A DNA stretch of 64,000 bases from a virus. A model generated the notes under the pieces. It did no database searches, was not told the DNA's origin, and was given only the letters and a program-made list of their open reading frames with translations. Numbering within the stretch: the stretch's first letter is position 1; every line of letters begins with the position of its first letter. A program made the position numbers and the translations under genes. The stretch lies in the IMG/VR virus record IMGVR_UViG_3300044988_000363; one strand, given 5' to 3'. Below, piece after piece: positions 34,390-62,054 of the stretch.

Positions 34390-34466
34390 CTAAATAAAGA
34401 TGTCCGTCACGAGTTGGCGCTCTACGGACTCTACACCTGTTAAAGAGGTCCAGCATGAATATTTAT
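34390..34466 (+). promoter_or_regulatory. Conserved structured leader, copy 1
   Basis: CTAAATA...GTCCGT-CAC-GAG-loop-CTC-T-ACGGAC-TCTA-ACCT..AGGT-CCAGC-ATGAATATTTAT. Confidence 0.8.
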
Positions 34467-34928
34467 TACGTATACGCATATATCCGAGCATCAGACAACT
34501 CCCCATATTATATCGGCAAGGGCAAAGGTCGAAGAGCCTTTAATAAATCTCATAGCGTATCAGTTCCCAAAGACAAATCAAAAATAATATTTCTTGAAAC
34601 TAATCTAACCAACGTTGGTGCTTGCGCTATTGAACGACGTTTAATACGTTGGTATGGAAGAAAAGATTTAAACAATGGTATTCTCCATAATCGCTCGGAT
34701 GGTGGCGAAGGACCAGATGGAGCAACCGTCTGGAACAAAGGAAAAACTGGAGTCTACTCAGAAGAAACTATTCAAAAGTTACGATCGAAAGCATCTGGCA
34801 AAAAACAATCAAAAGAAACAATCGAAAAAAGAATACAAAAAACAAAAGGCAAAACCAGAAGCGAAGAATTCAAACGACAACAATCCGAAAAAATTAAAGA
34901 ATGGTGGCGTTTGAAGAAGCAATCTTAG
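34455..34928 (+). CDS. GIY-YIG homing endonuclease with NUMOD3-like tail, inverted relative to neighbours
   Basis: YYVYAY...PYYIGKG...[13 protein letters not shown] and SEETIQK repeats. Confidence 0.88.
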
Positions 34929-35445
34929 GTTGTTTCTGTGGAGCCATAATCTTTATACGCTTCGAAGGCTGACATTTTATTTCAGGTTCTCCCTCTCTCA
35001 TATAATTTATGAATTTAAAATAAAGTCCTTTCTCTCGGCCATAAGCCTCGATTTCCCAAGGACATTCCCAATAATCCATCTCTTCGTGGAGGTATTTTTC
35101 ACCCTGCCATTTGACCATGCGTACTGGCTTCCAAATGTCTTTCATTTCACCTTTAGCATATTGCTTTAGGTGGACCATTTCATGAGCTAAAGCTAGTAAT
35201 GTTTCTTTCTTGTTAAGAGCTCTATCTACGCCTATAGTAAATTCTCTTTTCTGCTGACTGTCGTCAGTCCAGTCGCAATAAGCGTAGTCTCCGTCGATAT
35301 GATCCATTTTCTCAAATTGGATAGTCAACTTTAAGTTGTTGTAAAGTTTACCCCCTCCAATGAGATATTTTCCATAAAAATTCGCCGCCTTCTTGACTAT
35401 TGGCAGGGATATATGTGAGGGTTTACCGATTGTTTTTATGCGCAT
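34894..35445 (-). CDS. HExxH zinc-metallopeptidase-like conserved phage protein
   Basis: [11 protein letters not shown]...[10 protein letters not shown]; start MRIK after GGAGG. Confidence 0.7.
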
Positions 35446-35475
35446 ATTAGCCTCCAACAATGGTTCACCCACTAT

Positions 35476-35694
35476 TTATATCGGCAATCTAGCCCCACGT
35501 TTCAGAACATTAAGGTTTTCAGCCTCCAATTGAATCTTAGACTTCATTACTGGGTCTTTTCGTATCCAATACGCCGCAGTCTCTATTTCTAGATTATTTT
35601 TCTCGCACCAAAAAACTACGGCGTCAATATATTCAATATTTTTATCTTGACAGAGTTTTTCTACTTCTTCTATGAAGCCTGAATTTTTAAGCAT
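35476..35694 (-). CDS. gp33: Late transcription coactivator gp33
   Basis: FIEEVEK...YIDAVVFWCEKNNLEIE...KIQLEAENLN. Confidence 0.88.
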   Translation of the reverse strand: MLKNSGFIEEVEKLCQDKNIEYIDAVVFWCEKNNLEIETAAYWIRKDPVMKSKIQLEAENLNVLKRGARLPI

Positions 35695-35859
35695 TGTTTT
35701 TCATATTCCTTCAATTCGGCTATTCGTCGTTCAAGATATTGTTGTATATGACTATCGTTCAATCTTCGAGCCTTATGTCTGTTCAACTCCTGTTGTAATG
35801 ACCACATTACAGTGCTAGCATGAGAGTATGCATAAGTCTCTTTGATTGTGTCCATAGAA

Positions 35860-36261
35860 CTAATCCTTGATTGTGATTGTCGTAGATTCACCTTTGGTCA
35901 TATTGTAAAGAGTGTAAGCGTTATTTGGACTCAACCGAACGCATCCGTGACTAGCAGGTCGACCCAAATTGCCCACGTGAGGGGTAGCATGAATAGCATA
36001 ACCACCAGAAAAGAATATAGAGTGCGGCATGGGAGCATTGTCATATTTCTTTGAATAATGTATAGGCTGATAAGAATAAGGGCGGAAAGTTCCAGTTGGC
36101 GTATAATATCCCTTCCGGGCTGTAGATACTGGCCAACGTTCAATTAACTCTCCATCCTCGTAAATTGTCATTGACTGGCTGCGTTTCGAAACTACTATAT
36201 CATAGTTTGCTAGAGCAGAGGTAGAGAATAGAACTAATGCAGAGATCAGTAGTTTGTTCAT
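35860..36261 (-). CDS. Secreted L,D-transpeptidase (YkuD family)
   Basis: Signal peptide; WPVSTAR...TPTG...YAIHAT...LGRPASHGCVRL catalytic motif. Confidence 0.9.
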   Translation of the reverse strand: MNKLLISALVLFSTSALANYDIVVSKRSQSMTIYEDGELIERWPVSTARKGYYTPTGTFRPYSYQPIHYSKKYDNAPMPHSIFFSGGYAIHATPHVGNLGRPASHGCVRLSPNNAYTLYNMTKGESTTITIKD

Positions 36262-36394
36262 TCTGAATCCTCAATTTGATCGAGCTTTTCTCTTACAAAT
36301 ACAGCAAACTCTGGATCTTCCTTGAGATGCTGCTCTAACTGAGCAGTAGTCATCTGTTCAGACATAAAGCATTCCCAAAGCAATTCATAATTAT

Positions 36395-36598
36395 TCATGA
36401 TAGATATCCTAGGATAGAACCAACAGGGCCAACAAAAACACCAATACAGCGAAGAATAAACTTAGCGGTTACAGGATTGTCCATTGTATTCCAGATAGCA
36501 ATAATGTTCATCACCCATCCAACAAAAAAGACAAGCCATATTACAGTTAGAGTAATGTAATATGCTAGGCCATGATCTTCTTCACGATAATTTGCCAT
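36395..36598 (-). CDS. Small membrane protein
   Basis: Two hydrophobic segments; GGAG SD. Confidence 0.55.
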   Translation of the reverse strand: MANYREEDHGLAYYITLTVIWLVFFVGWVMNIIAIWNTMDNPVTAKFILRCIGVFVGPVGSILGYLS

Positions 36599-36743
36599 AA
36601 TATATTCTCCAGATTAGCGACCTGACTGTTTACGCCAAATCCATGATGAAAGGTTTAGAAGCGTTTGATGAAATTTGTCTACCAAAGAACTGTTCCAGAA
36701 CCAATGAAGCTTACGGTTTGACATTTTGTTCTCCGTTAAGAAA

Positions 36744-36820
36744 TGGCGATCCCGGCACGATTCGAACGTGCGACCCACAGATTAGAAGTCTGTTGCTCTA
36801 TCCAGCTGAGCTACGGGACC
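36744..36820 (-). tRNA. tRNA-Arg(UCU)
   Basis: GGTCCCGTAGCTCAGCTGGATAGAGCAACAGACTTCTAATCTGTGGGTCGCACGTTCGAATCGTGCCGGGATCGCCA; cloverleaf with encoded CCA; TTGCTT...TATAAT promoter upstream. Confidence 0.95.
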
Positions 36821-36863
36821 ATTGTTAGTATTATACGCTGATCCGAATGGAAAAGCAAGTTGT

Positions 36864-37073
36864 TTATACAAACATTCCAAAAATGCCAGAAAGAACAAAG
36901 AACGTAATTGCAGAAGCCAATGTGATCTCAATTACGCCTGTCGCCCAATAACCCAGAATAGCTCCCAGAAATAGACCTGCAACGGCGCAGATATAGACAT
37001 TAGTACTGAGAGCAAAGTTGAACTCACGCATACCCGTATATTTGTCTTTGTTACTCATAATATATCCTTTCAA
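36864..37073 (-). CDS. Small membrane protein
   Basis: Two TM segments. Confidence 0.5.
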   Translation of the reverse strand: MKGYIMSNKDKYTGMREFNFALSTNVYICAVAGLFLGAILGYWATGVIEITLASAITFFVLSGIFGMFV

Positions 37074-37077
37074 AATG

Positions 37078-37235
37078 AAAATGCGACTGTTCTGTTTCTA
37101 GGTCAGTCGCCAACCCAATGAGGATTAAGCTGCTAGAGCGTAACCTTCAAATGATGCATCATTATCGTTTGCATCTACGTTTCGCCTTTGGTCTCCTCGA
37201 AGCCTTAATGTAGATAATCGAGCCTATACACCCCC
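37078..37235 (-). ncRNA. ssrA: tmRNA coding piece (permuted two-piece ssrA)
   Basis: Starts GGGGGTGTATAGGCTCGA; tag frame 37172-37125 = ANDNDASFEGYALAA*; ends in a GCGACTG/CAGTCGC hairpin plus T-tract. The 3' end is approximate. Confidence 0.9.
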
Positions 37236-37236
37236 A

Positions 37237-37701
37237 TCATAAACTGACATATGGATTCGTTTTTTTCATAACAGATTTTAATCTACCACGAACCCAATCT
37301 TTAGGATAATCCTCTAAAGAGAACTGTCCTTCGGAAACGCCATCATTGAACCAATATCTCTTGTTTCTAATTTTTCTGCCATCTGTTCCTTTTTCATAAG
37401 GAGAAGGAACGCCTGATCTTATCCATTTACCAGTGGCAGATTTCTTACCATTTCCCCATCTAATAGCATTGGTTATTGCAGCGCCTTTTTTTGCTCCTTC
37501 ACGAATTGCTATAAAAGTGCATTCGTCAGAAGTAAGAAGACCTAACAAACCTTTCCAAGCCAATAAATCTTGCCAGTGACCATGTGTTTCATATAAAACT
37601 CTATGGGCTTCGGCATGTTCTTCAATAGTAAGTTCTATCAAGTTATTTGGTTCATCTGTTCCGCCTAAATGTTTGGGAACAATATGATGTATGTGTTTCA
37701 T
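37237..37701 (-). CDS. HNH homing endonuclease inside the tmRNA intervening segment
   Basis: HIHHIVPKHLGGTDEPNNLIELTIEEHAEAH motif; AGGAGG SD; C-terminal WFNDG...GRL module. Confidence 0.88.
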   Translation of the reverse strand: MKHIHHIVPKHLGGTDEPNNLIELTIEEHAEAHRVLYETHGHWQDLLAWKGLLGLLTSDECTFIAIREGAKKGAAITNAIRWGNGKKSATGKWIRSGVPSPYEKGTDGRKIRNKRYWFNDGVSEGQFSLEDYPKDWVRGRLKSVMKKTNPYVSL

Positions 37702-37703
37702 TT

Positions 37704-37743
37704 AATCCTCCTGTCAATCATACTTATTTATAATAGACAGGAT
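37704..37743 (-). promoter_or_regulatory. Late promoter TATAAATA in the loop of an RBS-sequestering hairpin (HNH gene)
   Basis: TCCTGTC-tatTATAAATAagtatgatt-GACAGGA(GG); TATAAATA at 37725-37732. Confidence 0.8.
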
Positions 37744-37755
37744 TTTATCAGTTTA

Positions 37756-37824
37756 TGGTGGAGGTGAGGGGATTCGCACCCCTGTCTTACCAACCTATAT
37801 GCTAAGTCTCAACGACCTCGGCAA
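37756..37824 (-). ncRNA. ssrA: tmRNA acceptor piece (permuted two-piece ssrA)
   Basis: ...GACAGGGGTGCGAATCCCCTCACCTCCACCA; CACCTCC pairs with GGGGGTG including G3:U70, discriminator A; AATAAATA at 37829-37836 upstream. The 5' end is approximate. Confidence 0.9.
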
Positions 37825-37968
37825 ACTTTATTTATTCTTTTGGAATTTCGTTTTCAAATTCTTCAATTAGGGGATGTGGTGGTTCTTTAGTGGCACGGTC
37901 TGTTAGAACTGTCCCGTACAATGCACTTACCGACGGTCGCCAACTCAGCGCAGCCAGCAACACCCAGA

Positions 37969-38256
37969 CTAAGACACACCATTGCTATTGCTATATAAAC
38001 CTTTTTCATTCTTATCCTCCGGATTATAATCGTGCTTTTCAGTTTCATGAAGAGCAACAGAAAACCATTCAGTAGAACCTTCACGTTGATACTGAAGATC
38101 CTGCATTGGAACCATTACCATTTCCTTAGTCTGAGGATGAACCATCATCTTAGGAAACATTACCATACGAAAATCTACAATCGGCTTTTTCTTATCAACG
38201 CCTCCCGTTGGGAGACTGCTAGCAGCAATTGCACCATCTGGTCCAAGAATACTCAT
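37969..38256 (-). CDS. Hypothetical protein
   Basis: Overlapping start/stop chain. Confidence 0.5.
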   Translation of the reverse strand: MSILGPDGAIAASSLPTGGVDKKKPIVDFRMVMFPKMMVHPQTKEMVMVPMQDLQYQREGSTEWFSVALHETEKHDYNPEDKNEKGLYSNSNGVS

Positions 38257-38606
38257 GTCTTTTGTCCTTTTACCTTTTCAAGCAACTGACCTAGATATTC
38301 AATCGCTTTATCATTAAATGTAACGTCGTCTAAAACACCAACAACGCAATATTGCTTTGCTGCCATTGCATTTCCATCCGAAGACTTATCGTATTCAATG
38401 ATAAACAGATGCCGATCTTTGGACATCATAACTTCATTCATCTTATCATTCTTTATACCATTATAAAGAGTAACAAGAGCTTTATCATCAATCATCTTCA
38501 TAAATTCTTTATTTTCATAACACTTCAATTCTGACTCTGCTGATAAAGCAGAGCCAGTTAACATTGAAGAGATAATCACACCATACATGATATTCTTCAT
38601 CATCAC
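38253..38606 (-). CDS. Secreted hypothetical protein
   Basis: Signal peptide ending ALS-A. Confidence 0.55.
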   Translation of the reverse strand: MMMKNIMYGVIISSMLTGSALSAESELKCYENKEFMKMIDDKALVTLYNGIKNDKMNEVMMSKDRHLFIIEYDKSSDGNAMAAKQYCVVGVLDDVTFNDKAIEYLGQLLEKVKGQKT

Positions 38607-38794
38607 TTCCTTGTGGTTACTTCCTGAACCTTTTGAGCAACCTTTTGATAATCAATCTTACCAAAATTGGTTGGACGCTTTGGAGGTAGAGGAACTTCAA
38701 CATACTTTGTAACTGGAGGCGCAATAACGTCGCCAGCAATTGCACTACCACCCATAAGCATGGCAGCGATAGTCGATAAGATAATCTTATTCAT
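38603..38794 (-). CDS. Small secreted protein
   Basis: Signal peptide; VPLPPKRP motif. Confidence 0.5.
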   Translation of the reverse strand: MNKIILSTIAAMLMGGSAIAGDVIAPPVTKYVEVPLPPKRPTNFGKIDYQKVAQKVQEVTTRK

Positions 38795-38968
38795 CTTATT
38801 TCCTTTCGGTATTATTTACGATGTTCTTAAGCAAAGCAACATCGTAATTTGTGATACGAGAAAAAGCATTCAACGCTTCTTCCCTTGATACTCCTTCTTT
38901 TTCGAGAAGGAACTTTGCTACGATCTTTATATCATTAAAGTCTTCGTAGAATTCTACATCTTTAGTGT

Positions 38969-40096
38969 TCATTGAACCACCCTCAACAAAATCGTGTTCT
39001 CGTTGATACGATACGCAAGAGGCTTTTCTGTCTTGAGATCATCAAGGACTTTTCGTAGAACAAGTTTACCACCCTCAAGTATGCGCTTGAGAAAATCGTT
39101 CGGTTCTTTCCTGCCCACAGAGCGGGAAATAGAACTACTTTCGTCATAGTTCGTAATGCTAGTTCCCTTGACCTGTAGCCCACCACGATCAATCGCTGTA
39201 AGCCTCGTAATCGTCTTATACTTTGTATTGAAAGTCCAGAGTTCCATTGCACCGATGATTTTTTCCGGTGACACTGAAGCAATTTTATAAGTTGCATCTT
39301 CCTTTTGGAACTTGAGACCCTTGATCTTCTTCTCAACTGATACTGCTCGTGGCTTGCGAGCCGTTCTAACTTTCTTCGTATTTGAAGAATATCTCTCCGC
39401 ATCTTCGATGAGGGTGTTGTAGAACGAGACGAGTTTCTTGATTTCTGTCTTTTTAAGGTGACGATAACCTTCTTTAAGCTGATCATCTTTTCCCTCATAC
39501 GCTTCAAGCAATTCGTCGAGCACTGGGGAAAATTTAGCAATGATTGAAGTAGCATAGGCTGCAGGAATATTGTTGCTCTGCAGCCACTCATACATCGAAA
39601 ACTCTACATTCTCGTAGATGTAATCGTCAATCAATCCTTCAATCTCTCCCAAAATATCATGAGTTTTCTCACGCATACGATCCTGGATAGAAATCCTCGG
39701 AGTTTCTGATTCCTCCTTGGGTTCTTCCTTCGCCTTGTCCCACATATTTAGGATCTTAGAACTGAAAAACTGCATCGTAGTTCCCGATGGCTTATGACCA
39801 CGAGAGATCATACGTGCAATCCAAGCAGCAGTCAAAGGAATATCTACGTCGGAGATCCTCGAAAGCTTCTTGGCTAGGTCTGGCTTACCAGTGTTCTTGA
39901 AATATTCCTTTAGATAATCACGAGCATCATTGGCAGTGCACATGTAGTTATACCATGTGAAACACTGACCCTCGTTGACATCCTGGGTCATAAGAGGCTC
40001 GTCGCCCAGATATTTCTTGTTCACAATATACTGTTCGGATCGAGAGACCCGAATAGTCTTTGGTTTACGCTTAATGAGTGCTGGGCGACGAGCCAT
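38969..40096 (-). CDS. Conserved T4-like phage hypothetical protein
   Basis: Long ORF with an early promoter and GAAGGAG SD; WYNY and RINENTILL motifs. Confidence 0.7.
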   Translation of the reverse strand: MARRPALIKRKPKTIRVSRSEQYIVNKKYLGDEPLMTQDVNEGQCFTWYNYMCTANDARDYLKEYFKNTGKPDLAKKLSRISDVDIPLTAAWIARMISRGHKPSGTTMQFFSSKILNMWDKAKEEPKEESETPRISIQDRMREKTHDILGEIEGLIDDYIYENVEFSMYEWLQSNNIPAAYATSIIAKFSPVLDELLEAYEGKDDQLKEGYRHLKKTEIKKLVSFYNTLIEDAERYSSNTKKVRTARKPRAVSVEKKIKGLKFQKEDATYKIASVSPEKIIGAMELWTFNTKYKTITRLTAIDRGGLQVKGTSITNYDESSSISRSVGRKEPNDFLKRILEGGKLVLRKVLDDLKTEKPLAYRINENTILLRVVQ

Positions 40097-40150
40097 GAAT
40101 ATCTCCTTCAATCGTATACATATTATACTTTATATAAGGGTCAAAGACAA

Positions 40151-40228
40151 CTAAATATTATTGTCCGTCACGAGTTGGGAGCTCTACGGACTCTAACGCT
40201 AAGAAGGAGCATCAGCATGGATATTTAT
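40151..40228 (+). promoter_or_regulatory. Conserved structured leader, copy 2
   Basis: CTAAATA...GTCCGTCACGAGTTGGGAGCTCTACGGACTCTAACGCT..AGCATCAGC-ATGGATATTTAT. Confidence 0.8.
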
Positions 40229-40645
40229 GATCCAATCGGTAAAGCATTAGGTCTCGAACCTATCGAATTTAATTATGATATAAAAACCTATTGTCCAGAC
40301 CAAGAAATTATTCCTTGGAACAAAGGTTTGACAAAAGAAGATCCTTACGTCGCTGAAATAGGCAAAAGAATTTCTCAAGCAAAACAAAATAATCCTACCA
40401 AACCTTGGAACAAAGGTTTGACAAAAGAAGATCAACGTGTAAGAGAAAACTCTATAAAGGCAGCTAATACTAAAAAACAGCAGGGGTTTTATAAAGATTG
40501 CGGAAAATATCTCCCTAAACTCATAGGAGATAAAAATCATATGAAGTCTTCAGAACATAGAAAACGTATGTCTGAATTAGCTTCTAGAAGATATAAAAAA
40601 TGGAACGAGGACGGTAGCTGGACTTGGGGCTACCGTCCTCTGTAA
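40217..40645 (+). CDS. NUMOD3-like (PWNKGLTKED x2) protein with no visible nuclease motif, inverted relative to neighbours
   Basis: Two PWNKGLTKED repeats; no GIY-YIG or HNH motif seen. Confidence 0.65.
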   Translation: MDIYDPIGKALGLEPIEFNYDIKTYCPDQEIIPWNKGLTKEDPYVAEIGKRISQAKQNNPTKPWNKGLTKEDQRVRENSIKAANTKKQQGFYKDCGKYLPKLIGDKNHMKSSEHRKRMSELASRRYKKWNEDGSWTWGYRPL

Positions 40646-40646
40646 C

Positions 40647-41627
40647 TTATGCCGCTTGTTCGGCCATTTCTACTGCAAGCTCAAGAGCCTTAGTCTTGAG
40701 ACCCTTGTTGTAGCCATACCAAGCCGACTGCATTCGAGTGTCAGCCGTACGACCGAGAACGTGATCGGTCATAAACGTAACAGCGTTAAAAGGCTGCCAC
40801 CAGCTGCCCTGAGCGAATTCGCTACCAGGCTGAGTGTCGAGAATACCGAGAGCCATATTGGCATTCTTCGAACGCTTACCCTCAACCTTATCTTCCGAAG
40901 TAGCACCAGCCAGCGGGAAGATACGCTCGAAGTACTCGACGATCGTTTCAGTCTTGGCCTTCTTCGAACCAAGGAACTGAGCCATCTCCTTATACTTCTG
41001 GAGCTTGTCGGTTGCAATGCCAAGCATATCCTTCACGTTAGCAGGGTTAAACTGCTTACGATGGGAAATCTTGACCATACGCTCTACCTTCGAACTGAGC
41101 GAGAGCGAGAGCGTATTGTTGCAAACGACTCGGATCGGCGTAAACCGAACGTCAGTAGAGAAACCATACTTGTGGAAATTAGAAAATAGAAGATAAGAGT
41201 CAATTTGATCTCCTTTGAAAAGCTCGAAAGATTCCTTGATCTTTGCGAGACCCCAAACGATCTGACCTCCCTTTAGCGAACCAGCGGTATGCATCTCCAT
41301 ATCGCCAGCCATCACAAACTCATTAAAGAAGTCGAACGCCTCTGCATTCTGCACGGGGTTCCAGTCGTCAGAGACAACGTCAAGCATCTTCTTGTCCTTC
41401 ATACGAACAAGAGCAGACTGACCTGTCTCCATTACACTATCCGGATCGTTTTCATCCAGAATAGCAAAAGTAGGAAACTTCTGGACTTCCCAATTGAGAC
41501 CAGCAGCTTCCAACATCTGTTCCGGGGTGAGATCCCCGAGAACCTTAACACCAAGACCATGCCACGGAACATCGCCAGCATAAGCCATCTGAGCGACACC
41601 ATCAACGAATTCGATTTCATGAGCCAT
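40647..41627 (-). CDS. DUF932-family phage/plasmid protein
   Basis: MAYAGDVPWHGLG...VQNAEAFDFF...TAGSLKGG...TPIRVVCNNTL. Confidence 0.88.
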   Translation of the reverse strand: MAHEIEFVDGVAQMAYAGDVPWHGLGVKVLGDLTPEQMLEAAGLNWEVQKFPTFAILDENDPDSVMETGQSALVRMKDKKMLDVVSDDWNPVQNAEAFDFFNEFVMAGDMEMHTAGSLKGGQIVWGLAKIKESFELFKGDQIDSYLLFSNFHKYGFSTDVRFTPIRVVCNNTLSLSLSSKVERMVKISHRKQFNPANVKDMLGIATDKLQKYKEMAQFLGSKKAKTETIVEYFERIFPLAGATSEDKVEGKRSKNANMALGILDTQPGSEFAQGSWWQPFNAVTFMTDHVLGRTADTRMQSAWYGYNKGLKTKALELAVEMAEQAA

Positions 41628-41629
41628 TT

Positions 41630-41692
41630 TACTTCTCCTTCACATCAACCATCATATACATAGTATAGCTCGATATTTTAAAAAAGTCAAGC
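41630..41692 (-). promoter_or_regulatory. Sigma70-type early promoter cassette
   Basis: GCTTGACT...TATACT, then ATGATGGTTGATGTGAAGGAG. Confidence 0.8.
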
Positions 41693-41899
41693 GATCTTTT
41701 TGGCTTCGAGAGAGTCCTGAAAACCCTGATGGAACCCAGCATACCACTCTCGTTCACGATAGTGTTCCGACTGAACTAGCCTCTCGTTGCTCTGATCTAC
41801 GGAAAGATAATTATAGGGACAATCCTTTATAGACCCTCCCTCTACATAATGCGTTTTACCTTCGAGAAAAAATTGATTAGTATACTGCCATTCATTCAT
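41687..41899 (-). CDS. Small protein with Rmf-like pattern
   Basis: EG...G.....CPY......W..GF..G pattern. Confidence 0.4.
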   Translation of the reverse strand: MNEWQYTNQFFLEGKTHYVEGGSIKDCPYNYLSVDQSNERLVQSEHYREREWYAGFHQGFQDSLEAKKIA

Positions 41900-50873: not shown

Positions 50874-51509
50874 TCACCTAAATGATGGTCCGGCAACCCA
50901 CATAACCAAAGAGTTTCTTATTCCCTTTGTTACTGGTGTCACTTCGTGAATAGTAAATGATGGAAATAATAATACAGAGCCTCTTGTTGGTCTAATCTTA
51001 AAATCACGTGCATAAGGAAAACGTAGCTCGCCTCCTTCAAACTCATCTGGGTCTGAAAGTAATACAGTCAATGATAGCTTTCTTGCTATTGTATTATAAT
51101 CTCTATCCGAGTGAGCAATATAATGCTGCTCATCGTTGCCGTTATATTCCAGGAATTGCATAGGCTCTACGGGACCAGTCAAATCGAAATGAAAATGTCT
51201 TTGATTGGCCGTGACTACTACTTCTCTGATCCTCTCGATTACAAAAGCCAAATTCTCTTTTTGTTGTTCGGGCGACGCCTGATAAACCGTGCAGTTTCTT
51301 ACGCTCTTGTCAACATTTCCCTCGCCAACAGAAGAAACATTCGGCGTAGTGTTGTTCTTATAATAATCAATAATATCGTTACACTCTTTGGCGTCGAATA
51401 CCTTATGATAAATTGCGAACTCTTCTATATTGTCTCGATGTACTCCGGGAATATCAAAAATACTAGGTATCTTGATTTCATTTTGATCATCACCAGTATC
51501 AATAATCAT
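50874..51509 (-). CDS. 2OG-Fe(II) oxygenase (PKHD/prolyl-hydroxylase-like)
   Basis: HSD...RKLSLTVLLSDPDEFEGGEL...FPSFTIHEVTPVTKGIRNSLVMW. Confidence 0.9.
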   Translation of the reverse strand: MIIDTGDDQNEIKIPSIFDIPGVHRDNIEEFAIYHKVFDAKECNDIIDYYKNNTTPNVSSVGEGNVDKSVRNCTVYQASPEQQKENLAFVIERIREVVVTANQRHFHFDLTGPVEPMQFLEYNGNDEQHYIAHSDRDYNTIARKLSLTVLLSDPDEFEGGELRFPYARDFKIRPTRGSVLLFPSFTIHEVTPVTKGIRNSLVMWVAGPSFR

Positions 51510-51512
51510 TTA

Positions 51513-52160
51513 TCACTCCGGAATTTTAGGATCTTTAATAGGCGGAAATGGTTTGGCTTTCCCAGTTTTGTTAGGAACAAAATTAAACCATCCTGTAAGA
51601 ATATACTTCTCTTGCGTTGGAGATACTACACCACGATGGAAATGAGTCCAGTCGACTGGCCATATCATGGTCAATCCCTTCTCTGGGCGTAGATTAATAC
51701 GTTGATGATAGAATTGCGTTCCGCCTCGATCAGTAACGTCATTAAGATATGTCATAAACGCCAGATGACGAGATACTCCTGGCTCAACACAACTTAGACG
51801 TTCGGAATGCCAAATTTTAAATCCGCCACCCGGAGGATAATATTGAATATTTGGTGGGCTAAGAACATCTACATCATCACCATACGCTGACAAAGGATAT
51901 ACCTTTTGATACTCATTCATTATGTCATGCAAATGAGCATAATACTCTTTTAGAATTGTATCGTCGCTTAAATGACAATCAACGGAGTCTTTAATTGATT
52001 TGTTAACAACTCTCTGGCCAAACTCGTTATGAATAATTCCAGCACTCTTATCTGAGTTATTATTAAACCATTCAATAACTCTATCGCAGAAACTGGTGTC
52101 TTTCATATACCATCCCAGGATGAAATTACCTGGGATTGGATTTAGTATATGTGATTTCAT
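51513..52160 (-). CDS. 2OG-Fe(II) oxygenase
   Basis: WHSE...FMTYLNDV..GGTQF...WPVDWTHFHRG...KYILTGW. Confidence 0.9.
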   Translation of the reverse strand: MKSHILNPIPGNFILGWYMKDTSFCDRVIEWFNNNSDKSAGIIHNEFGQRVVNKSIKDSVDCHLSDDTILKEYYAHLHDIMNEYQKVYPLSAYGDDVDVLSPPNIQYYPPGGGFKIWHSERLSCVEPGVSRHLAFMTYLNDVTDRGGTQFYHQRINLRPEKGLTMIWPVDWTHFHRGVVSPTQEKYILTGWFNFVPNKTGKAKPFPPIKDPKIPE

Positions 52161-53617: not shown

Positions 53618-54058
53618 TCAGAAGTCCCCCGGAGACACCTGAAGGCAACGAAGACCCGCCGAACGCCACATCTTAACCACTCGATCACGATCTTCGAGAA
53701 CGAGCACAGGCTCATATCCCGCTTCATAGATCTGCTCGAGCAATTCGAACTTTACGATATCGTCATCACGACGATCTCCTAACTTACGCATATAAAGAGC
53801 ATGATAAGGAATATCATTCTCAGTAAGCCAGTCTAGAGTATCCTGACGACACTTCTCGTCACGAGCAGTGCAAAGGACAATCTTAATATCGTAGTCCGTC
53901 GCCATATCTAATAGGGCGACGACTTCCTCGATAGGCTCGTCCTTATGGGCATTCGAATGCCATGCATTCCAGTCTTTATGCCCATTGGTTATATAATGAA
54001 TACGATGCTCTGTATTAGCAATCGTGCCATCGATATCAACAATCCAACATTTCGTCAT
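53618..54058 (-). CDS. HAD phosphatase (PseT/PNK 3'-phosphatase-like, stand-alone)
   Basis: DIDGT, TAR and K...EDR..VVKMWR..GL.CLQV..GDF motifs. Confidence 0.88.
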   Translation of the reverse strand: MTKCWIVDIDGTIANTEHRIHYITNGHKDWNAWHSNAHKDEPIEEVVALLDMATDYDIKIVLCTARDEKCRQDTLDWLTENDIPYHALYMRKLGDRRDDDIVKFELLEQIYEAGYEPVLVLEDRDRVVKMWRSAGLRCLQVSPGDF

Positions 54059-54065
54059 TATATCC

Positions 54066-54878: not shown

Positions 54879-55433
54879 CAGTTCTCTCCTCATCGTATAT
54901 ACATATTATACCGCTGTTTTTGAAAAAAGTCAAGCCGCTTCTTCGTCGTCTTCGATCTCTTCTTCGAGGTCAAAGTAGCGATTGATATGATCCGCGACCC
55001 GACTAGACTCGCTAGAATAGAATACAAAATCGCCCATCTCTCGGCGATGATCCTTGTCTACGTACTCGAAACCACCGTAGTATTCTAGAGTCCCAGCTTT
55101 AAACTTATCGACAGCGATATACTCTTGATTAATATAGATCATACCACAGCGATTGTCGAGACCTATATTATCTCGACCAGCGTGAACCAGTTCGAACTCG
55201 TCGTTAATATGCTGTTCGACTTTACGAGCCATCTCATACAGAAAATCATCAGTACTCATTGTCAAGATCCTCTTCAGATGCAACGATACGGATACGATCA
55301 GCCCAGATTAGTGCCTCTCCGACACGCTCTAGGGATCTATTATCTAAACTAGTCCCGCCTTGGCTGAGATACTCCCAGATTAGGGCGGAGACTTCTCTCG
55401 CTTCCTCGCGAGTGATAGACCATTCCTCTTTCA

Positions 55434-55706
55434 TTAGACTCTCTTCAGCAACGAGCCAGAGACTTTCCACTGCGATGTCGGCGTATTCACCGTCACAGTT
55501 TTCTGATTGATACGAGCCACAGTACCCGTAATAGTCTCGCCAGAGCGAGTCTCGAACTTAACTTTATCGCCCTTAGCAAAGCGGACAGTCGCGACTCTCT
55601 GCATCTCTTTGAATTTAATAGAGACAGCCTGAGAGATAGAACGGATCTCCTCGGCAGAGAAAGAACCAGCGAGGATAGCGGCATTAATCTGACTAACGGT
55701 CTTCAT
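55434..55706 (-). CDS. Small SH3/KOW-like protein
   Basis: GDKVKF...GTVARINQKTVTV...WKVSGSLL. Confidence 0.55.
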   Translation of the reverse strand: MKTVSQINAAILAGSFSAEEIRSISQAVSIKFKEMQRVATVRFAKGDKVKFETRSGETITGTVARINQKTVTVNTPTSQWKVSGSLLKRV

Positions 55707-55707
55707 T

Positions 55708-55865
55708 TCGATTTCCCTTTCATCAACCATATTCTAAGTATACCCTAATCCATGGAAAAAGCAAGCGTCAGCTTGACCATACCAGGATCTTTTTTTAAAA
55801 TATTAGGGCTTGACTTTTTTGTCGAACCCAGTATAATAGACATTGTCAGGATGAAAGGTAGATCG
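55708..55865. promoter_or_regulatory. Divergent early promoter pair
   Basis: GCTTGCTTTT...TATACT (-) and GCTTGACTTTT...TATAAT (+). Confidence 0.8.
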
Positions 55866-55969
55866 ATGAAACAGTTTAACCCTATTGCTTTCGAGTTACG
55901 CTCAGGCAAATATAAACAGCGTATTATTAAGAATAAAAAGAAATACGATCGTAAACGAATGAAAAAGGA

Positions 55970-56401
55970 TTGGTGATGAATATTCATAATGAGTGCACAT
56001 TCCTTAAACCAGAGGGAATTGCTAAGATAGAGAACATGTATAATGCCAAGTATGTGTTCGAGTCATGTCTTAAAACTCGAACTGATGGCTGGAGTAATTA
56101 TCCCGTAGCTATTTTCTATACGGAACAAGCGCATCCTAGGGGATCGAATTATATGGGACTGTATGTTGATGAATACGGTCGATTATTGATTACCGACGGG
56201 ATCGCTGCTACTGAACCATTTGATGCTTTACAAATTGGCGAGGATATTATATACTCTCGGTATCGTCATGACTATCGTGAATTTAAAGGAGCGATGGTTG
56301 ATGGCGGGCGAGATTACTTCAAGCGTAGCGCCGATCGTGGTGTGCCTGTAAAGCTGAAGGTTGTTGGTGATCATTTGGAGGTGGTAGAAAATGCTGCTTA
56401 G
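55970..56401 (+). CDS. Conserved phage hypothetical protein
   Basis: YSRYRHDY...VDGGRDY motif. Confidence 0.65.
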   Translation: MVMNIHNECTFLKPEGIAKIENMYNAKYVFESCLKTRTDGWSNYPVAIFYTEQAHPRGSNYMGLYVDEYGRLLITDGIAATEPFDALQIGEDIIYSRYRHDYREFKGAMVDGGRDYFKRSADRGVPVKLKVVGDHLEVVENAA

Positions 56402-57244
56402 TCAAAGCTCAGAGTTCTTCTATTTGTTCTTACTCCCATTGGGTATATTGGTATGGGGTGCTGTGATTTGGATCCTCTCAATGTTCGTTTATCTAATAAA
56501 GGATAATCTCCGTGACCGATGACCTTGTAAAACGAATATTGGAACAAGCCAATGCAGAGGGTGATATTGTCTGTGGTGATGATGGTTATTATGTATATTG
56601 GCCTCGGCGCACAGGAGCCTATCCTTCCTATCATCTGCGAGCCCTTGCTGATGAATTAGATCGGCGCAATGAGGTCTGGGATAAAGAGTTGGATGAGTAT
56701 TTTGATAACCTTGCCAAGAAACAGGAACCTCTAGGTGAGGATGATATGGATAAGACCATTGAAGACATCCTGGCTGAAGAAATACAGGCAGAAATAGATC
56801 GTGAGATACTTGAAACTGTTAAAATGACCTGCGATGGTTGGGTGTCAGTAGATTATCCAGATGGTATTGGCTTTATAGAACATTGTGGAATTAAGGATTG
56901 GGTAGAAGAAAACATTAAAGGTCCAAATAAACTAATTCATACTAAATGGTGGTTTAAGGATCCAAAAGATAAAGTATTATTCTTGTTGAGGTGGGGAGTT
57001 TGAAAAAGTCCTGTATAATAACCTTGATGACCTATATGTGAGGGATGATGACTGAATTTCTAACAAAGAATGCAGATGTTGCATTGGTAGAAGTAAAAGA
57101 GAAGCTGTATGAACGACTGCGTAATAGAACCAATTACGCTGCACAGGATCCATTGAAGGATCCATATTACAAAGGACTACAAAAAGGTGCATTGTCCGAA
57201 GTAGAGTTTCTGAAGGGACTGTTGGATATTATCGAGAGGTCATA

Positions 57245-57403
57245 ATGATTACTGACGAACTACGCCAGATTGCATACAATGAAGGTTGTCAGGCTTTCGC
57301 TGATGATGTAAATCTTATGGATAATCCATATAATGGCGTTTCACATACTCTCAAAGTATTTTGGAGCCATGGTTGGTGGGCTATGTTTTACGACGAGAAC
57401 TAA
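57245..57403 (+). CDS. Small protein with Rmf-like pattern
   Basis: Manual translation MITDELRQIAYNEGCQAFADDVNLMDNPYNGVSHTLKVFWSHGWWAMFYDEN. Confidence 0.5.
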   Translation: MITDELRQIAYNEGCQAFADDVNLMDNPYNGVSHTLKVFWSHGWWAMFYDEN

Positions 57404-57404
57404 G

Positions 57405-57740
57405 ATGAAATATAAACTCTATCTGGATGACCTGCGTTATCCTGACCTGCATCCCGATTGGAGGATTGCTCGTAACTACCATGATGCTGTGTGGATGGTT
57501 ACGAACTATGGACTGCCATATTATATCTCCTTTGATCATGATCTGAACGATTTTGCTGACTTCTATACTCATCGAATGGAGTTCACTGGCTATGACTTTG
57601 CCAAATGGTTCTGTAATTGGGTGATGGATAATGATGTATGTCTGAATGATTTTGATTACTGGGTTCACTCTGCTAACCCTGTCGGTGCAGAGAACATCCG
57701 CCGCTATATGGCCAACTTTCTAAGGGATCGTTATGTCTAG
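57405..57740 (+). CDS. Cyclic-phosphate-processing receiver-like domain protein
   Basis: LYLDDLR...ISFDHDL...TGYD...VHSANPVG. Confidence 0.8.
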   Translation: MKYKLYLDDLRYPDLHPDWRIARNYHDAVWMVTNYGLPYYISFDHDLNDFADFYTHRMEFTGYDFAKWFCNWVMDNDVCLNDFDYWVHSANPVGAENIRRYMANFLRDRYV

Positions 57741-58092
57741 TCTTGAAGCATTTATGGAACAAGAGACAGTTGTTGAGGGAGAATGGCAAAAGACTGACAA
57801 AGGTTGGTCGCATATTCCTCAACAAATGAAATGGGAGAGCATACTACAATGGCAGGTAGAAATGTTCTTCTATTCTTGTTATCTGTACTATGTTCTTGAC
57901 AATCCAAAACTGGACGATGCTGGATTTGACCGCATCGTAGAGATTCTAGAAAATCATTTCAACGAATTGCCTGAACGTATTACGCATACAGTAGGTCCAG
58001 GACAGATTAAAGCCAACGCTCATCTGTTCGCTCATGATTTAACAGAAAAAGAAAAAGAAAACGCTTTACTTTGGAAAAATAACGAACTATGA
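57733..58092 (+). CDS. Protein resembling the NAD-dependent ligase N-terminal (Ia) subdomain
   Basis: YLYYVLDNPKLDDAGFD motif. Confidence 0.55.
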   Translation: MSSLEAFMEQETVVEGEWQKTDKGWSHIPQQMKWESILQWQVEMFFYSCYLYYVLDNPKLDDAGFDRIVEILENHFNELPERITHTVGPGQIKANAHLFAHDLTEKEKENALLWKNNEL

Positions 58093-58318
58093 TATAAATA
58101 CGTGACCTTAACAACACCAAGGAGGGTGTAATGATTAGAATATCATATACAATCAAGAATATTGACGGACTATTGGTTGACAAAACCCAAGTCTTCAATA
58201 CGCTCTCCGAGTTAACCATGTTTATAGCACATCTCAGAGCGTCAGGACAGTTAGTAGGAAAGCCAACTATCTCCTAAATAGGGTTGCCTTCGGGCAATTC
58301 TTTCGAAAGGAGATTATT

Positions 58319-58552
58319 ATGAGCGGTTATAAGACGTATTTAATGGCTCTAATTGTAGGCATTTTACCATTGGCTACAGAAAAGATTGGAGCTATAGACT
58401 GGAATGCATTGCTTTTGGGCTTGGGTGTTCCTGATAATTACGTAGTTCCTGCTGCTACTGCAGTCAGTGCTATTGTTATGATTATCATGCGAATGATCAC
58501 ACAAGTTACAACAGTTAAGACTGCTTTGGAGACACCTCCACCAGCTGAATAA
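58319..58552 (+). CDS. Holin-like small membrane protein
   Basis: GYKTY plus TM helices; CTAAATA upstream; next to the spanins. Confidence 0.5.
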   Translation: MSGYKTYLMALIVGILPLATEKIGAIDWNALLLGLGVPDNYVVPAATAVSAIVMIIMRMITQVTTVKTALETPPPAE

Positions 58553-58564
58553 GATAAGGGCGCT

Positions 58565-58846
58565 TTATGCGCCCTTTTTTATTGTTTTATCTGCATCGTT
58601 TAAGAATTTTCTAATACTTTCAATGGAGCTCTTACATGTCAAATTGTTCTTTTGAAGTTGGATTAACAGCTTCGCAACCTGAGAATCAGTCAGAGTCTGC
58701 CATTTCGGAAACTGTTTCACCACAGGACAATAATACATTGCCTCGGCAGGATGTGCGACCATATATTTGTAAGATGTTACAATCTGAGTCTGATCATTAC
58801 AACTCGCCAGTGCAATTGCGATTGCCAATAGAATAATCTTTTTCAT
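58565..58846 (-). CDS. o-spanin-like lipoprotein
   Basis: Lipobox LASC; Pro/Cys pattern; overlaps the i-spanin-like gene. Confidence 0.65.
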   Translation of the reverse strand: MKKIILLAIAIALASCNDQTQIVTSYKYMVAHPAEAMYYCPVVKQFPKWQTLTDSQVAKLLIQLQKNNLTCKSSIESIRKFLNDADKTIKKGA

Positions 58847-59223
58847 TCACTTAACCTTTTTATAGTTTCTTTAAGGATATCCGAAGATGGACGATCGTTA
58901 CCCTTCCCGACCTCCACATCAACATGAGATTCTATTGCTTTTAGCTTATTTTCTAATGCTTGTTTCTGGCTTTCTAATTTCTCTACTGCTTCATCTCTAT
59001 TTTTAAATATAGTTTGCTGATGTTCGATGAACAAATCTTTGTCCTTGACATTTTGTTCTAATTGGTTTATATTATACTGTTGTAATGCTACTTGTTTTTC
59101 TAAATTTACTATTTGACGATGTTTCATGTAAAGACCAGAAACTAGTCCACCAACTAATATAAGTATTGACAGCCATTTTAAGGCTCCAGATGAGATTAGG
59201 GATAATAGTATGTTCATGGGCAC
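58843..59223 (-). CDS. i-spanin-like protein
   Basis: N-terminal TM plus long coiled coil. Confidence 0.65.
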   Translation of the reverse strand: MPMNILLSLISSGALKWLSILILVGGLVSGLYMKHRQIVNLEKQVALQQYNINQLEQNVKDKDLFIEHQQTIFKNRDEAVEKLESQKQALENKLKAIESHVDVEVGKGNDRPSSDILKETIKRLSE

Positions 59224-59667
59224 ACCTCTCTTTCCGCAATATTTATTTCATAGATATCGCAGAAAACACCCACATCGCAAATTCTCAGCAACGAGAAGAC
59301 GATTACCAGGATTAGCAGGCTGGTGGGTTAGAGATTCGTATTCTCATCTTTTTGAGAAAGTTAACAAAAGGAGAAAATTATGTTTAAGATCACAGAAGAA
59401 ACCAAAGCTGAAGCAGTGGAAGCTATGAGAGCAATTCTTGGCGATGCTCCTACAGACGCACAGCTAGATGAAGCATTTGAAGCAGCAGTTGCTATTGTAA
59501 AGAAACAGTTTGGTATGTAAGATGGATAAGTGGGAGGAATTAAAGTTATTAATGAAAGCGGACATTTCACATGCTGTTCACTATTCTTCTGATAAAGATT
59601 ACGAGCATGGTATGACCAAGCGTTATCTCGAAATGATGGATTATTTAGAGAAGAAGGAAAAAGAGCA

Positions 59668-61338
59668 ATGCAATACAAAGCACCAGTAGAATCGACAACA
59701 TTTCTTCTTCGTGACGTTCTGAAGTTTGATAATGAATTAACAGAACCTATTCTAGAAGAAATTGCAAAGTTATGTGAAGAAACAATTGCTCCCACTAATC
59801 AAATAGGAGATATTGAAGGCTGTAAGTATGTCAAAGAAGAAAGTAAAGTTAAAACTCCAGCAGCGTTCAAAGAAGCGTATAAAGCGTTTGCCGAAGGAGG
59901 CTGGGTGGGTCTTTCGGTTCCTGAACGCTATGGTGGTCAGGGCTTACCGTTTACACTTGCGGTTGCTGCAAACGAATTTGTATCCTCATCTAACATGGCT
60001 TGGTCTCTTTATCCTGGCATTTCTCGTGGAGCGATCCAGGCACTCTTAGTTTCTGCATCAGACGCACAGAAAGAAACATTCATTCCTTGGCTAGTTCGTG
60101 GCGAATGGACAGGAACAATGTGTCTTACTGAACCACATTGCGGAACTGATCTTGGTTTGCTCAAGACTAAAGCAGTAGATAAACAGAACGGATCATATGA
60201 GATTACTGGCCAGAAGATTTTTATTTCTGGCGGCGAACATGATCTGACAGATAACATTTTACATCTTGTTCTTGCAAGAGTTGAAGGCGATCCAGAAGGC
60301 GTCAAAGGTATTAGTTTGTTTGCTGTGCCAAAAGTTTTGCCTGATTTCTCACGCAACAAAGTTTTTGCTGGTGCTATTGAAGAAAAGATGGGCATTCATG
60401 GTTCACCAACTTGCGTTATGAACTTTGATGGTGCTACTGGATTTTTAATTGGTGAACGTTGCCGTGGTTTACAGGGCATGTTTATTATGATGAATGAACT
60501 TAGATTAGGATGTGCCATTCATGGATTATCTCAGTCGGAACTCGCATTTCAAAATGCATTACAATACGCCAAAGACAGAATCCAAAGCAAATCGCTTGTC
60601 AATGTTAGCGGTCCTAGTGTCTCTATTCTTGCACATCCTGATATTAGGCGTATGCTTATGGATGTTAAGTGTATTAACGAAGCTGCCCGTCTATTAATTC
60701 TAGAAGCAGCCACATTGGTTGATAAGGGCGGTGAAAAAGCAGAAGATCTTCTTGGTCTTATGACTCCTGTTCTCAAAGGTGTTATTACAGATTATGGCGT
60801 TGAGAACGCTATCAAGATGCAGCAAGTATGGGGCGGTCATGGTTATGTCCGTGACAATGGCATGGAACAAATTGTCCGTGATGCTCGTATTGCTATGATA
60901 TATGAAGGCGCTAATGGTATTCAGGCGCTTGATTTAGTAGCAAGAAAACTTCCTAAAAATATGGGTCGTGCTGTTATGCGTTTCTTCAAAGATACTGAAA
61001 CATTCCTAACAAGTTCTTATGAACACGATATCAACCATATCGTTCAGCCAATGACACAAGCCGTAAGCGAACTAAAGCAAGCAACTGAATGGTTAGCAGC
61101 AAATGGTATGAAGAATCCTAATGATGTTGGTGCAGCAAGTTATCCATATATGAAAATGTTTGGATTGGTTTTGTTAGGATTGGCGCATATTCGTATTTGT
61201 TTGGCAACCGACGACAAAGCAAGACATACTACCGCAACTTATTTTATGGAGAATGTCTTGCCAGAAGCCAGTTTCTTACTGAAAAAGATTCGTCAAGGAT
61301 CACAAACAATGATGGCACTAACTCCAGACGAGTTCTGA
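59668..61338 (+). CDS. Acyl-CoA dehydrogenase
   Basis: GTMCLTEPHCGTDL, GQKIFISGG, EEKMGIHGSPTC, GGHGY and IYEGANGIQALDL motifs. Confidence 0.95.
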   Translation: MQYKAPVESTTFLLRDVLKFDNELTEPILEEIAKLCEETIAPTNQIGDIEGCKYVKEESKVKTPAAFKEAYKAFAEGGWVGLSVPERYGGQGLPFTLAVAANEFVSSSNMAWSLYPGISRGAIQALLVSASDAQKETFIPWLVRGEWTGTMCLTEPHCGTDLGLLKTKAVDKQNGSYEITGQKIFISGGEHDLTDNILHLVLARVEGDPEGVKGISLFAVPKVLPDFSRNKVFAGAIEEKMGIHGSPTCVMNFDGATGFLIGERCRGLQGMFIMMNELRLGCAIHGLSQSELAFQNALQYAKDRIQSKSLVNVSGPSVSILAHPDIRRMLMDVKCINEAARLLILEAATLVDKGGEKAEDLLGLMTPVLKGVITDYGVENAIKMQQVWGGHGYVRDNGMEQIVRDARIAMIYEGANGIQALDLVARKLPKNMGRAVMRFFKDTETFLTSSYEHDINHIVQPMTQAVSELKQATEWLAANGMKNPNDVGAASYPYMKMFGLVLLGLAHIRICLATDDKARHTTATYFMENVLPEASFLLKKIRQGSQTMMALTPDEF

Positions 61339-61988
61339 TGTTGTTTGGAGTTTAGATGTTGATTCCAGTTGTGTTGTCCTTTTATATCACGATTACAGCA
61401 TGAGCAATGAAACACAGGAGCAGTTTGGAAATACTTCTTTCGTCTTTCCGACTGCTCTTGTCTCTTTTTAGGGTCAGACCATGTTTCTTTATGCTTCTTT
61501 GATAATGCTTCTCTTTTGGCAGTATTGGACCAAACCTTTGAACTTATCTTTGATCTTTCTTCCAAGTATTCAGGAGAGTTTCTAATGGCCACCATGTTAT
61601 CACGAAACTCTGGATCATCCCATTGTCTTTTTAGATTATCTGACCTTAGTTTTCTTATCTCAGGAGCGTTATTGATTTCTAACATTCTGGCATAGTATTC
61701 GGGATCAGACCATCTTTCGTTATTCAACTTGGTGGCAAAGTCAGAGATTTCTTGTTGGGACATTTTGAGTTTTTGAGATATTCTCAAACAAGCGTATGTG
61801 TCGTTCTGGGAAAAATGAATATCGTAATGTTCCTGTATAGAAACACACTGGAGATTATCTATATGATTATTGGAATGATTACCGTCGATGTGATGGATTT
61901 CATACGATCTTCCTTGTTCGTCTTTAGGAATAGGACCGTTGAAATGTTCCCAGATTTTGCGGTAGTTGGTTGTAGTATAAATATCCAT
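61293..61988 (-). CDS. HNH homing endonuclease with helical repeats and a C-terminal Zn finger, inverted relative to neighbours
   Basis: YEIHHIDGNHSNNHIDNLQCVSIQEHYDIH; WxDPE repeats; CSCC...HLNSKQH. Confidence 0.88.
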   Translation of the reverse strand: MDIYTTTNYRKIWEHFNGPIPKDEQGRSYEIHHIDGNHSNNHIDNLQCVSIQEHYDIHFSQNDTYACLRISQKLKMSQQEISDFATKLNNERWSDPEYYARMLEINNAPEIRKLRSDNLKRQWDDPEFRDNMVAIRNSPEYLEERSKISSKVWSNTAKREALSKKHKETWSDPKKRQEQSERRKKYFQTAPVFHCSCCNRDIKGQHNWNQHLNSKQHQNSSGVSAIIVCDP

Positions 61989-62054
61989 GCTGGACCTCCG
62001 ATCAGGTTTAGAGTAGGTGAGGATTCCCGTCCTGCGACCTACACTTCTATTTAG
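61976..62054 (-). promoter_or_regulatory. Conserved structured leader, copy 3 (covarying)
   Basis: CTAAATA...GTAGGT-CGC-AGGA-loop-TCCT-C-ACCTAC-TCTA-AACCT..AGGT-CCAGC-ATGGATATTTAT. Confidence 0.8.

Follow-up and report, generated by a model that had tools for sequence, protein, structure and literature searches.

A mobile cassette with two facing late-promoter-like boxes and a fold selected on the antisense strand heads homing endonuclease genes of uncultured T4-like phages

The 64,000-nt stretch of IMG/VR record IMGVR_UViG_3300044988_000363 (hereafter the window) is DNA of an uncultured T4-like phage with 38% G+C, and it carries three nuclease-type genes, with start codons at 34455 (+), 40217 (+) and 61988 (-), that share a 5' head of approximately 85 bp, referred to here as the cassette. 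The three copies follow one layout, namely an xCTAAATA box, a bulged hairpin (hairpin 1), ACTCTA, a short hairpin that covers the Shine-Dalgarno (SD) sequence (hairpin 2), CAGC, the ATG and RAT ATT TAT, and the distance from CTAAATA to the ATG is 65–66 nt in all of them. Stem 1 reads GTCCGT/ACGGAC in two copies and GTAGGT/ACCTAC in the third. A preliminary description of the window had placed three copies at these positions, and a covariance model made from related copies recovers exactly these three in the 64 kb (67–82 bits, with rough E-values of 4e-13 to 1e-16); the model finds no fourth cassette in the window, the next match having an E-value of 2. As that description also stated, all three nuclease genes oppose both of their neighbours.

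Copy 1 heads a GIY-YIG-type homing endonuclease of 157 aa (34455–34928 (+); phrog_314, with a NUMOD3 tail), which runs against gp59 and against the upstream gene. Its forward late-promoter-like box (CCTAAATA, a sequence match) occupies 34389–34396 (+). Hairpin 1, at 34402–34429 (-), is built of an outer stem of 6 bp, an inner stem and, between them, one purine:pyrimidine (R:Y) pair flanked by two single-base bulges, and hairpin 2, at 34431–34453 (-), has approximately 8 bp including G.U pairs on the antisense strand, with the anti-SD in its loop, and holds the SD of the nuclease gene on the sense strand. The reverse late-promoter-like box (AATAAATA on the minus strand, 34460–34467 (-)) falls within codons 2–5 of the nuclease open reading frame (ORF). 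Copy 2 consists of a forward late-promoter-like box (ACTAAATA, 40150–40157 (+)), hairpin 1 (40163–40191 (-)), hairpin 2 (40193–40215 (-); -8.0 kcal/mol on the antisense strand versus -1.5 on the sense strand) and a reverse late-promoter-like box (CATAAATA on the minus strand, 40222–40229 (-)), and heads a NUMOD3-like ORF of 142 aa without a recognisable nuclease domain (40217–40645 (+)). Copy 3 heads an HNH_3 homing endonuclease of 231 aa (61293–61988 (-)), and here the antisense strand is the plus strand of the window: the forward late-promoter-like box (ACTAAATA on the minus strand) is at 62048–62055 (-), hairpin 1 at 62013–62042 (+), hairpin 2 at 61990–62011 (+; -8.5 kcal/mol antisense versus -4.0 sense) and a perfect TATAAATA, the reverse late-promoter box, at 61976–61983 (+). 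Convergent with this HNH gene is a gene of 556 aa for an acyl-CoA dehydrogenase-like protein in which all four Pfam domains are present (59668–61338 (+)).

The conservation of the fold was evaluated by measuring covariation on a 138-row MAFFT alignment that was fitted to no structure. In this alignment 94.9% of the cells pair, as against 81% in shuffles and 34–52% with slid partners, both sides change in 14 of the 20 pairs, and none of 500 shuffles reaches the observed score, so that the compensatory changes first noticed in stem 1 are borne out as strong covariation. The element described earlier as a 3-nt/1-nt internal loop does contain unpaired bases, but these are really two invariant single-base bulges that flank one covarying R:Y pair.

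The fold is, moreover, not symmetrical between the strands. Pairs that are broken on the gene strand are nearly all A.C, and such pairs become G.U when the opposite strand is read; of the 138 MAFFT-aligned sequences, 137 have G.U at one particular pair, and two covarying pairs of hairpin 2 show 20 and 41 wobbles. A model-based alignment gives 228 antisense G.U cells versus 30 A.C, and 189 versus 7 once an uncertain terminal pair is left out, although an alignment fitted to a model leans to the modelled strand; the MAFFT alignment and free folding agree nonetheless. When 99 unique copies are folded freely, hairpin 2 averages -6.6 kcal/mol in the antisense and -1.9 in the sense orientation, the antisense form being the stronger one in 99 of 99; the corresponding figure for hairpin 1 is 86 of 99. 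CAGC pairs with CTCTAA when the antisense strand folds (through C-G, U-A and G.U pairs), which produces a hairpin 2' of approximately 8 bp with the anti-SD in its loop, one base apart from hairpin 1'; the CTCTA taken earlier for an invariant linker takes part in this pairing on the opposite strand. Both wobble pairs and folding energies indicate that it is the antisense strand, opposite the nuclease gene, on which the fold is under selection, and the initial view of a structured leader of the nuclease mRNA does not, in the main, hold.

The genes around the cassettes are those of a T4-type phage. In the window gp32 and gp59 are adjacent, the latter being approximately 40% identical to gp59 of T4-like cyanophages, and a megablast of the region against INPHARED returned no near relative among cultured phages. 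Boxes of the sequence NATAAATA are found approximately 24–70 nt upstream of structural and other genes of the window, for example at 2326 (-), 28060 (-), 35480 (-), 58093 (+) and 59247 (-), and are best read as the T4-type late promoter class of this phage. Homologues of T4 gp55 are present in all five large cassette-bearing genomes tested; in the 64-kb window itself tblastn did not find gp55. Other arrangements of such boxes occur: at 28040/28060 two overlapping back-to-back AATAAATA boxes stand where two structural gene blocks switch, and at 58273–58318 (+) a CCTAAATA box is directly followed by a GTTGCC-TTCG-GGCAAT hairpin, an SD and an ATG, a further combination of late box and 5' hairpin that has no relation to the cassette. 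A co-oriented HNH endonuclease ORF of 154 aa (37237–37701), located inside an Rfam match to permuted transfer-messenger RNA (tmRNA; 37125–37817 (-), 693 nt, 52.8 bits, gathering score 47), has a late box upstream (TATAAATA, 37725–37732) and no cassette.

Within the cassette, a TAAATA box precedes the foot of hairpin 1 by a few nucleotides in 220 of 249 copies, and a second box lies on the far side of the hairpins, where the preliminary description had seen a conserved start, CAGC-ATG-RAT-ATT-TAT. In a set of copies anchored on the 5' half of the motif, TAT[TA]TA is present in 127 of 135, and in 119 it follows CAGC by 4–6 nt. In the same set the start codon is offset by 0, 1 or 2 (87, 24 and 11 copies, respectively) and the box uses all three reading frames (98, 18 and 7), while the encoded start peptides vary (MNIY, MTIY, MSIY, MYL, MIFI); in some copies the ATG even lies upstream of CCAGC (MSSKTIY...), and CAGC-N5-TATTTAT is still kept. 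Because the distance from this box to hairpin 2 is constant while the ATG and the frame move, the conserved "first codons" are best understood as a reverse-strand late-promoter box and not as a peptide, so that the conserved start is not what it seemed. On the opposite strand the TATTTA box reads NATAAATA, and the predicted start is the G before CUG, at the foot of hairpin 2'. Both boxes, which are consensus matches only, fit the late consensus of the phage at a fixed distance from the hairpin feet; given that the forward box lies a few nucleotides before hairpin 1 and the reverse box 4–6 nt past hairpin 2, they are regarded as two facing late boxes across two hairpins. The possibility that the boxes form a closing helix, or an inverted repeat like that of a miniature inverted-repeat transposable element, was rejected as the main explanation: only six A/T bases are shared, and the flanks, viewed by eye, do not co-vary.

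The cassette layout is present in at least 225 IMG/VR loci, a collection that includes near-duplicates. Two sequence sets were drawn from it, each anchored on one half of the motif: the 3'-half-anchored pattern matched at least 114 contigs and the 5'-half-anchored pattern at least 119, the second set being limited to GTAG[GT]T stems. Three jumbo-phage genomes of 329–361 kb (92–100% complete, two of them complete with terminal repeats) carry 13, 13 and 9 copies. An ORF is found at the expected place behind each of the 17 copies examined in the two complete genomes, 16 of them of 171–251 aa and one cut to 30 aa. Pfam searches with 93 downstream proteins gave NUMOD3 (31), GIY-YIG (11), HNH (2), HNH_3 (2) and DUF7487 (3), together with DUF559/Vsr-like, TnsA-like, PvuRts1I-like and MTES_1575 classes, which span several nuclease folds, in keeping with the portable module common to unrelated nuclease families that had been proposed; nearly every copy heads a homing-endonuclease-type ORF from one of several unrelated folds. 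At three loci (L056:1135-1300 (+), L128 (-) and L205:3819 (+)) a forward box and hairpin 1 are followed by unrelated sequence, without hairpin 2 and without an ORF of at least 50 aa, and these may be decayed or recombined cassette heads. Among 185,579 prokaryote genomes only four contigs of metagenome-assembled genomes carry the cassette, which gives no hint of the host. A blastn of two copies against INPHARED found no cultured phage with the cassette. Comparison with Rfam 15 gave no match of the cassette to a characterised motif, since the scan of the window returned only a tRNA and the permuted tmRNA, and permissive scans of two copies reached 13–14 bits at best against gathering scores of 50–51. 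No description of the cassette turned up in the literature searched.

The relationship between the cassette and the mobile DNA can be established where alleles with and without a nuclease gene are compared. The site of copy 2, between a DUF932 gene and a gene of 375 aa, is empty in many relatives (11–48 nt) and filled in others. An empty allele (L326) and an occupied one (L313) differ by one clean insertion of 536 bp, which sits between the DUF932 terminator hairpin and the TTGACA-N17 promoter of the neighbour and which, in gene orientation, starts 5 nt before the forward box; it is for this reason that the cassette belongs to the inserted mobile unit, and the term portable applied to it at the outset is justified. 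The true cassette alleles at this site are only those of the window (WIN), L270 and L313, a loose pattern having over-called occupied sites. The gap itself (window 40097-40646; loci L249–L328) is a hyperplastic spot; where it is not empty, either a nuclease cassette or small, co-oriented and varied ORFs fill its 180–1570 nt. No stop codon for the nuclease ORFs of this site (L313:2163-2681 (-); window 40600-40645 (+)) lies within the insert, and their last 15–19 codons or so (NEDGxWxWGxRP) are encoded by the complementary strand of the host terminator hairpin, itself present in the empty allele too. The C-terminal 79 residues of the copy 2 ORF are 57% identical to the 172-aa L313 nuclease of the same site and the N-terminus is different; since only the C-terminus is shared, the copy 2 ORF is a derivative whose catalytic N-terminal part was lost and replaced.

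The flanks of the insertion belong to the host. The sigma-70-like promoter of the 375-aa gene (TTGTCT-17-TATAAT, 40122–40150 (-)) abuts the cassette end and is host DNA, and the TTGACA-N17-TATAAT promoters beside copies 2 and 3 are host flank, present in the empty allele. A GTCAA found upstream of some copies was considered as part of the cassette and rejected, being the complement of the neighbour's -35 hexamer; it is lacking in co-oriented copies viewed by eye, and the TTGACA promoter at the copy 2 site exists already in the empty allele. At the site of copy 1, relatives that lack the nuclease gene show no visible gap, the frame of the upstream gene reaching directly to the ATG of gp59, whereas both the window and L350 have the nuclease gene and its cassette between the two. 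The gp59 ATG is at 34379 (-), 11 nt beyond the cassette. In the window (34377–34396) gp59 has lost the SD that relatives without the nuclease gene carry inside the upstream gene. The complement of the unusual CC-TAAATA end of the cassette yields an AGG(T) SD-like element 8 nt before the gp59 ATG, and likewise in L350.

The orientation of the cassettes relative to their neighbours deserves separate consideration, as the preliminary description linked the module to antisense insertion. Copies opposed to both neighbours outnumber co-oriented ones by 46 to 19 in a first count (two-sided binomial p of about 0.001 by our own arithmetic), by 41 to 16 in a second and by 7 to 4 in two complete genomes, all counts resting on naive ORF and neighbour calls. 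The bias, of approximately 70:30, is real but not a rule, and what remains of the link is a tendency. The antisense features are equal in co-oriented copies: the reverse box is kept in 91–100% of these and in 92–100% of the opposed ones, and the strength of hairpin 2' is -6.7 to -7.1 versus -6.7 to -8.1 kcal/mol. This equality argues that the features serve the cassette itself and not the neighbour.

We propose that the cassette is the 5' end of a self-contained homing-endonuclease gene (HEG) mobile unit of uncultured T4-like phages, in which two late promoters face each other over approximately 65 bp. The forward NATAAATA box would start the nuclease mRNA at the foot of hairpin 1, which is followed by a one-base linker and by the SD-bearing hairpin 2. 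From the second NATAAATA box, which points backward from the gene's first codons, 4–6 nt past hairpin 2, transcription is predicted to begin at the foot of hairpin 2'; the resulting antisense RNA would consist of two nearly abutting hairpins, with full complementarity to the SD, the start codon and the mRNA's 5' end. Owing to its many G.U pairs, hairpin 2 would be strong in this RNA but weak in the nuclease mRNA. If both boxes fire, the antisense RNA, together with polymerase collisions between the promoters, would hold the translation of a potentially toxic nuclease low late in infection. That facing late promoters yield a nuclease mRNA and a structured cis-antisense RNA that brakes its translation, in the manner of IS10, is in our judgement a plausible account with roughly even chances of being right. 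As the cassettes are alike, further copies within one genome may also be targets of the antisense RNA. Up to 13 cassettes per phage share the hairpin-1 arms, the linker and the anti-SD loop, which makes damping in trans conceivable; a genome-wide network in which the RNA of each cassette damps every copy is nevertheless doubtful. Were it real, the total nuclease dose would fall as copy number rises, as in multi-copy inhibition. On this doubtful reading, an RNA-binding protein or RNase of the phage or its host could use the two invariant bulged bases to take hold of the RNA.

Several observations weigh against this proposal and have to be set beside other explanations. Behind hairpin 1', ACAC comes ahead of the U-rich run, and the scan called no terminator, so the antisense RNA is probably not cleanly terminated after hairpin 1'; the gp59 start lies only 11 nt beyond the cassette, therefore transcripts must read through it and a discrete RNA of approximately 70 nt is doubtful; a divergent ORF begins less than 30–40 nt beyond the cassette in 49–64 of 220 copies, which fits a role in feeding the neighbour; the lean of the model-fitted alignment noted above counts on the same side; and the equal conservation across contexts could reflect recent mobility alone. 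Under the main rival, the backward promoter and the antisense fold would serve the divergent host gene, restarting late transcription into it and providing a stable hairpin-capped 5' leader with an AU-rich or SD-bearing approach, which would make insertion against an operon cheaper. It would account for the approximately 70% of copies that oppose their neighbours, for the nearby divergent ORFs, for a hairpin 1' without a proper terminator tail, and for copy 1 and L350, where the insertion split gp59 from the upstream gene and the cassette complement supplies the AGG(T) SD. Yet the reverse box and a strong hairpin 2' are equally kept in approximately 40 co-oriented copies that have no gene to feed, the neighbour of copy 2 keeps its own sigma-70-like promoter, already in the empty allele, and the invariant bulges and the anti-SD loop are left unexplained. 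We hold this explanation to be unlikely, and it does not exclude an antisense brake. The related notion that hairpin 1' and its U-rich tail are an intrinsic terminator or insulator that stops antisense transcription through the nuclease gene starts from a G+C-rich hairpin followed by the U-rich complement of the forward box; it is highly improbable, with the four non-U bases (ACAC) separating the bulged stem from the U run, the stem not flagged by the scan, and gp59 and many other neighbours starting directly behind hairpin 1'.

Two further explanations were considered. In one, which develops the view of the preliminary description, the structure would act as a sense 5' leader in which hairpin 1 is a stabiliser, hairpin 2 gates the SD and MNIY/MDIY is a start peptide. 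With the forward box where it is, the mRNA would begin at the foot of hairpin 1 or close to it, hairpin 1 is stable on the sense strand too (mean -9.9 kcal/mol), and T4-type HEGs with late promoters and hairpins are known (PMC2988022, PMC3014915). A sense role is nonetheless quite improbable when hairpin 2 is so weak on that strand (mean -1.9 kcal/mol, weaker than the antisense form in 99 of 99), when the sense mismatches are almost all A.C and hence G.U on the other strand, and when the "peptide" changes both frame and identity (MTIY, MSIY, MYL, MIFI, MSSKTIY) while the DNA box stays. Another way of looking at the cassette is as chiefly a DNA-level recombination module akin to PeSLs, elements that offer a known precedent (PMC2839356, PMC4122927), in which the approximately 85 bp would let nuclease ORFs swap or move and would have no specific RNA role beyond a promoter. 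Many near-identical copies per genome, unrelated ORFs behind one common head, the different N-terminus on a shared C-terminus in copy 2, and an insertion site at a terminator/promoter junction in a hyperplastic spot are all consistent with it. Homology-driven recombination alone, however, would not be expected to leave compensatory changes that preserve pairing or a G.U bias on one strand, and PeSLs have early sigma-70 promoters, not paired late boxes; we regard it as very unlikely that the cassette is chiefly such a module.

Elsewhere in the window a tRNA-Arg(tct) gene is found at 36744–36820, and a region with two 2-oxoglutarate (2OG)-Fe(II) oxygenase genes, a PNKP-type HAD phosphatase gene and a cREC_REC receiver-domain gene includes 50874–52160 (-), 53618–54058 (-) and 57333–57740 (+).

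The proposed antisense brake has a counterpart in IS10/Tn10, in which RNA-IN and RNA-OUT provide antisense control of the transposase by facing promoters, and multi-copy inhibition acts in trans (PMC5006887). As in IS10, two facing promoters are predicted for the enzyme gene of a selfish element, together with a short antisense RNA of stable fold that would be complementary throughout to the ribosome site and the mRNA start; the predicted antisense stem-loop spans the SD and the ATG by position, the fold is selected on the antisense strand, and the copies are alike, so action in trans is possible. Unlike IS10, the cassette has predicted T4-type late promoters and an overlap of approximately 65 nt with two hairpins, it heads homing endonucleases belonging to several folds, no clean terminator is apparent behind its antisense hairpins, and it is known from sequence alone.

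Within the T4 family, I-TevI, I-TevII, I-TevIII, segB and mobE of Aeh1 combine a late promoter with a ribosome-binding-site hairpin and are expressed late only, the late start lying inside the hairpin, so that the late mRNA escapes SD sequestration (PMC2988022, PMC3014915). The cassette shares with these genes the type of phage lineage, the gene class, a TATAAATA-type late promoter directly upstream and hairpins around the SD; it departs from them in having both hairpins downstream of the predicted start, only a weak sense hairpin over the SD, selection for folding on the opposite strand, and a further late box that points backward. The scheme of a stable sense SD hairpin with a late start in its 5' arm was accordingly rejected for the cassette, on the mean of -1.9 kcal/mol for sense hairpin 2 and the position of both hairpins. 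The PeSL and PmSL elements are also short, repeated promoter and stem-loop modules of plastic regions that are tied to gene shuffling, and PeSLs consist of a terminator stem-loop and a sigma-70 early (or Mot middle) promoter beside assorted ORFans (PMC2839356, PMC4122927). The cassette, by contrast, combines paired late boxes with two covarying hairpins, and the genes behind it are all of nuclease type. Membership in that group was rejected, the boxes of the cassette being late-type and the sigma-70 promoters beside copies 2 and 3 host flank. The antisense RNA CfrI is reportedly a single RNA of approximately 225 nt linking psbA and F-CphI in one phage group, unlike the cassette, which is a portable, multi-copy 5' head. 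It is cited as an antisense RNA tied to a homing endonuclease gene in the T4-like cyanophage S-PM2 (Millard et al., 2010, cited in PMC10690425).

The hundreds of members of the cassette make up a new structured RNA family, offer natural examples of strand-selective hairpin design through G.U pairs and a testable case of paired late promoters in a gp55 system, and provide a clean metagenome marker for nuclease genes of this kind. Among the selfish genes of T4-like phages the chief ones are free-standing homing endonucleases, and the way in which these avoid harming the carrier is known for only a handful of coliphage cases, all of them sense-strand SD hairpins. If the proposed antisense brake is true, the cassette would be a second and far more widespread solution, a movable head that would supply a late promoter, a ribosome site and an antisense brake to any nuclease ORF.

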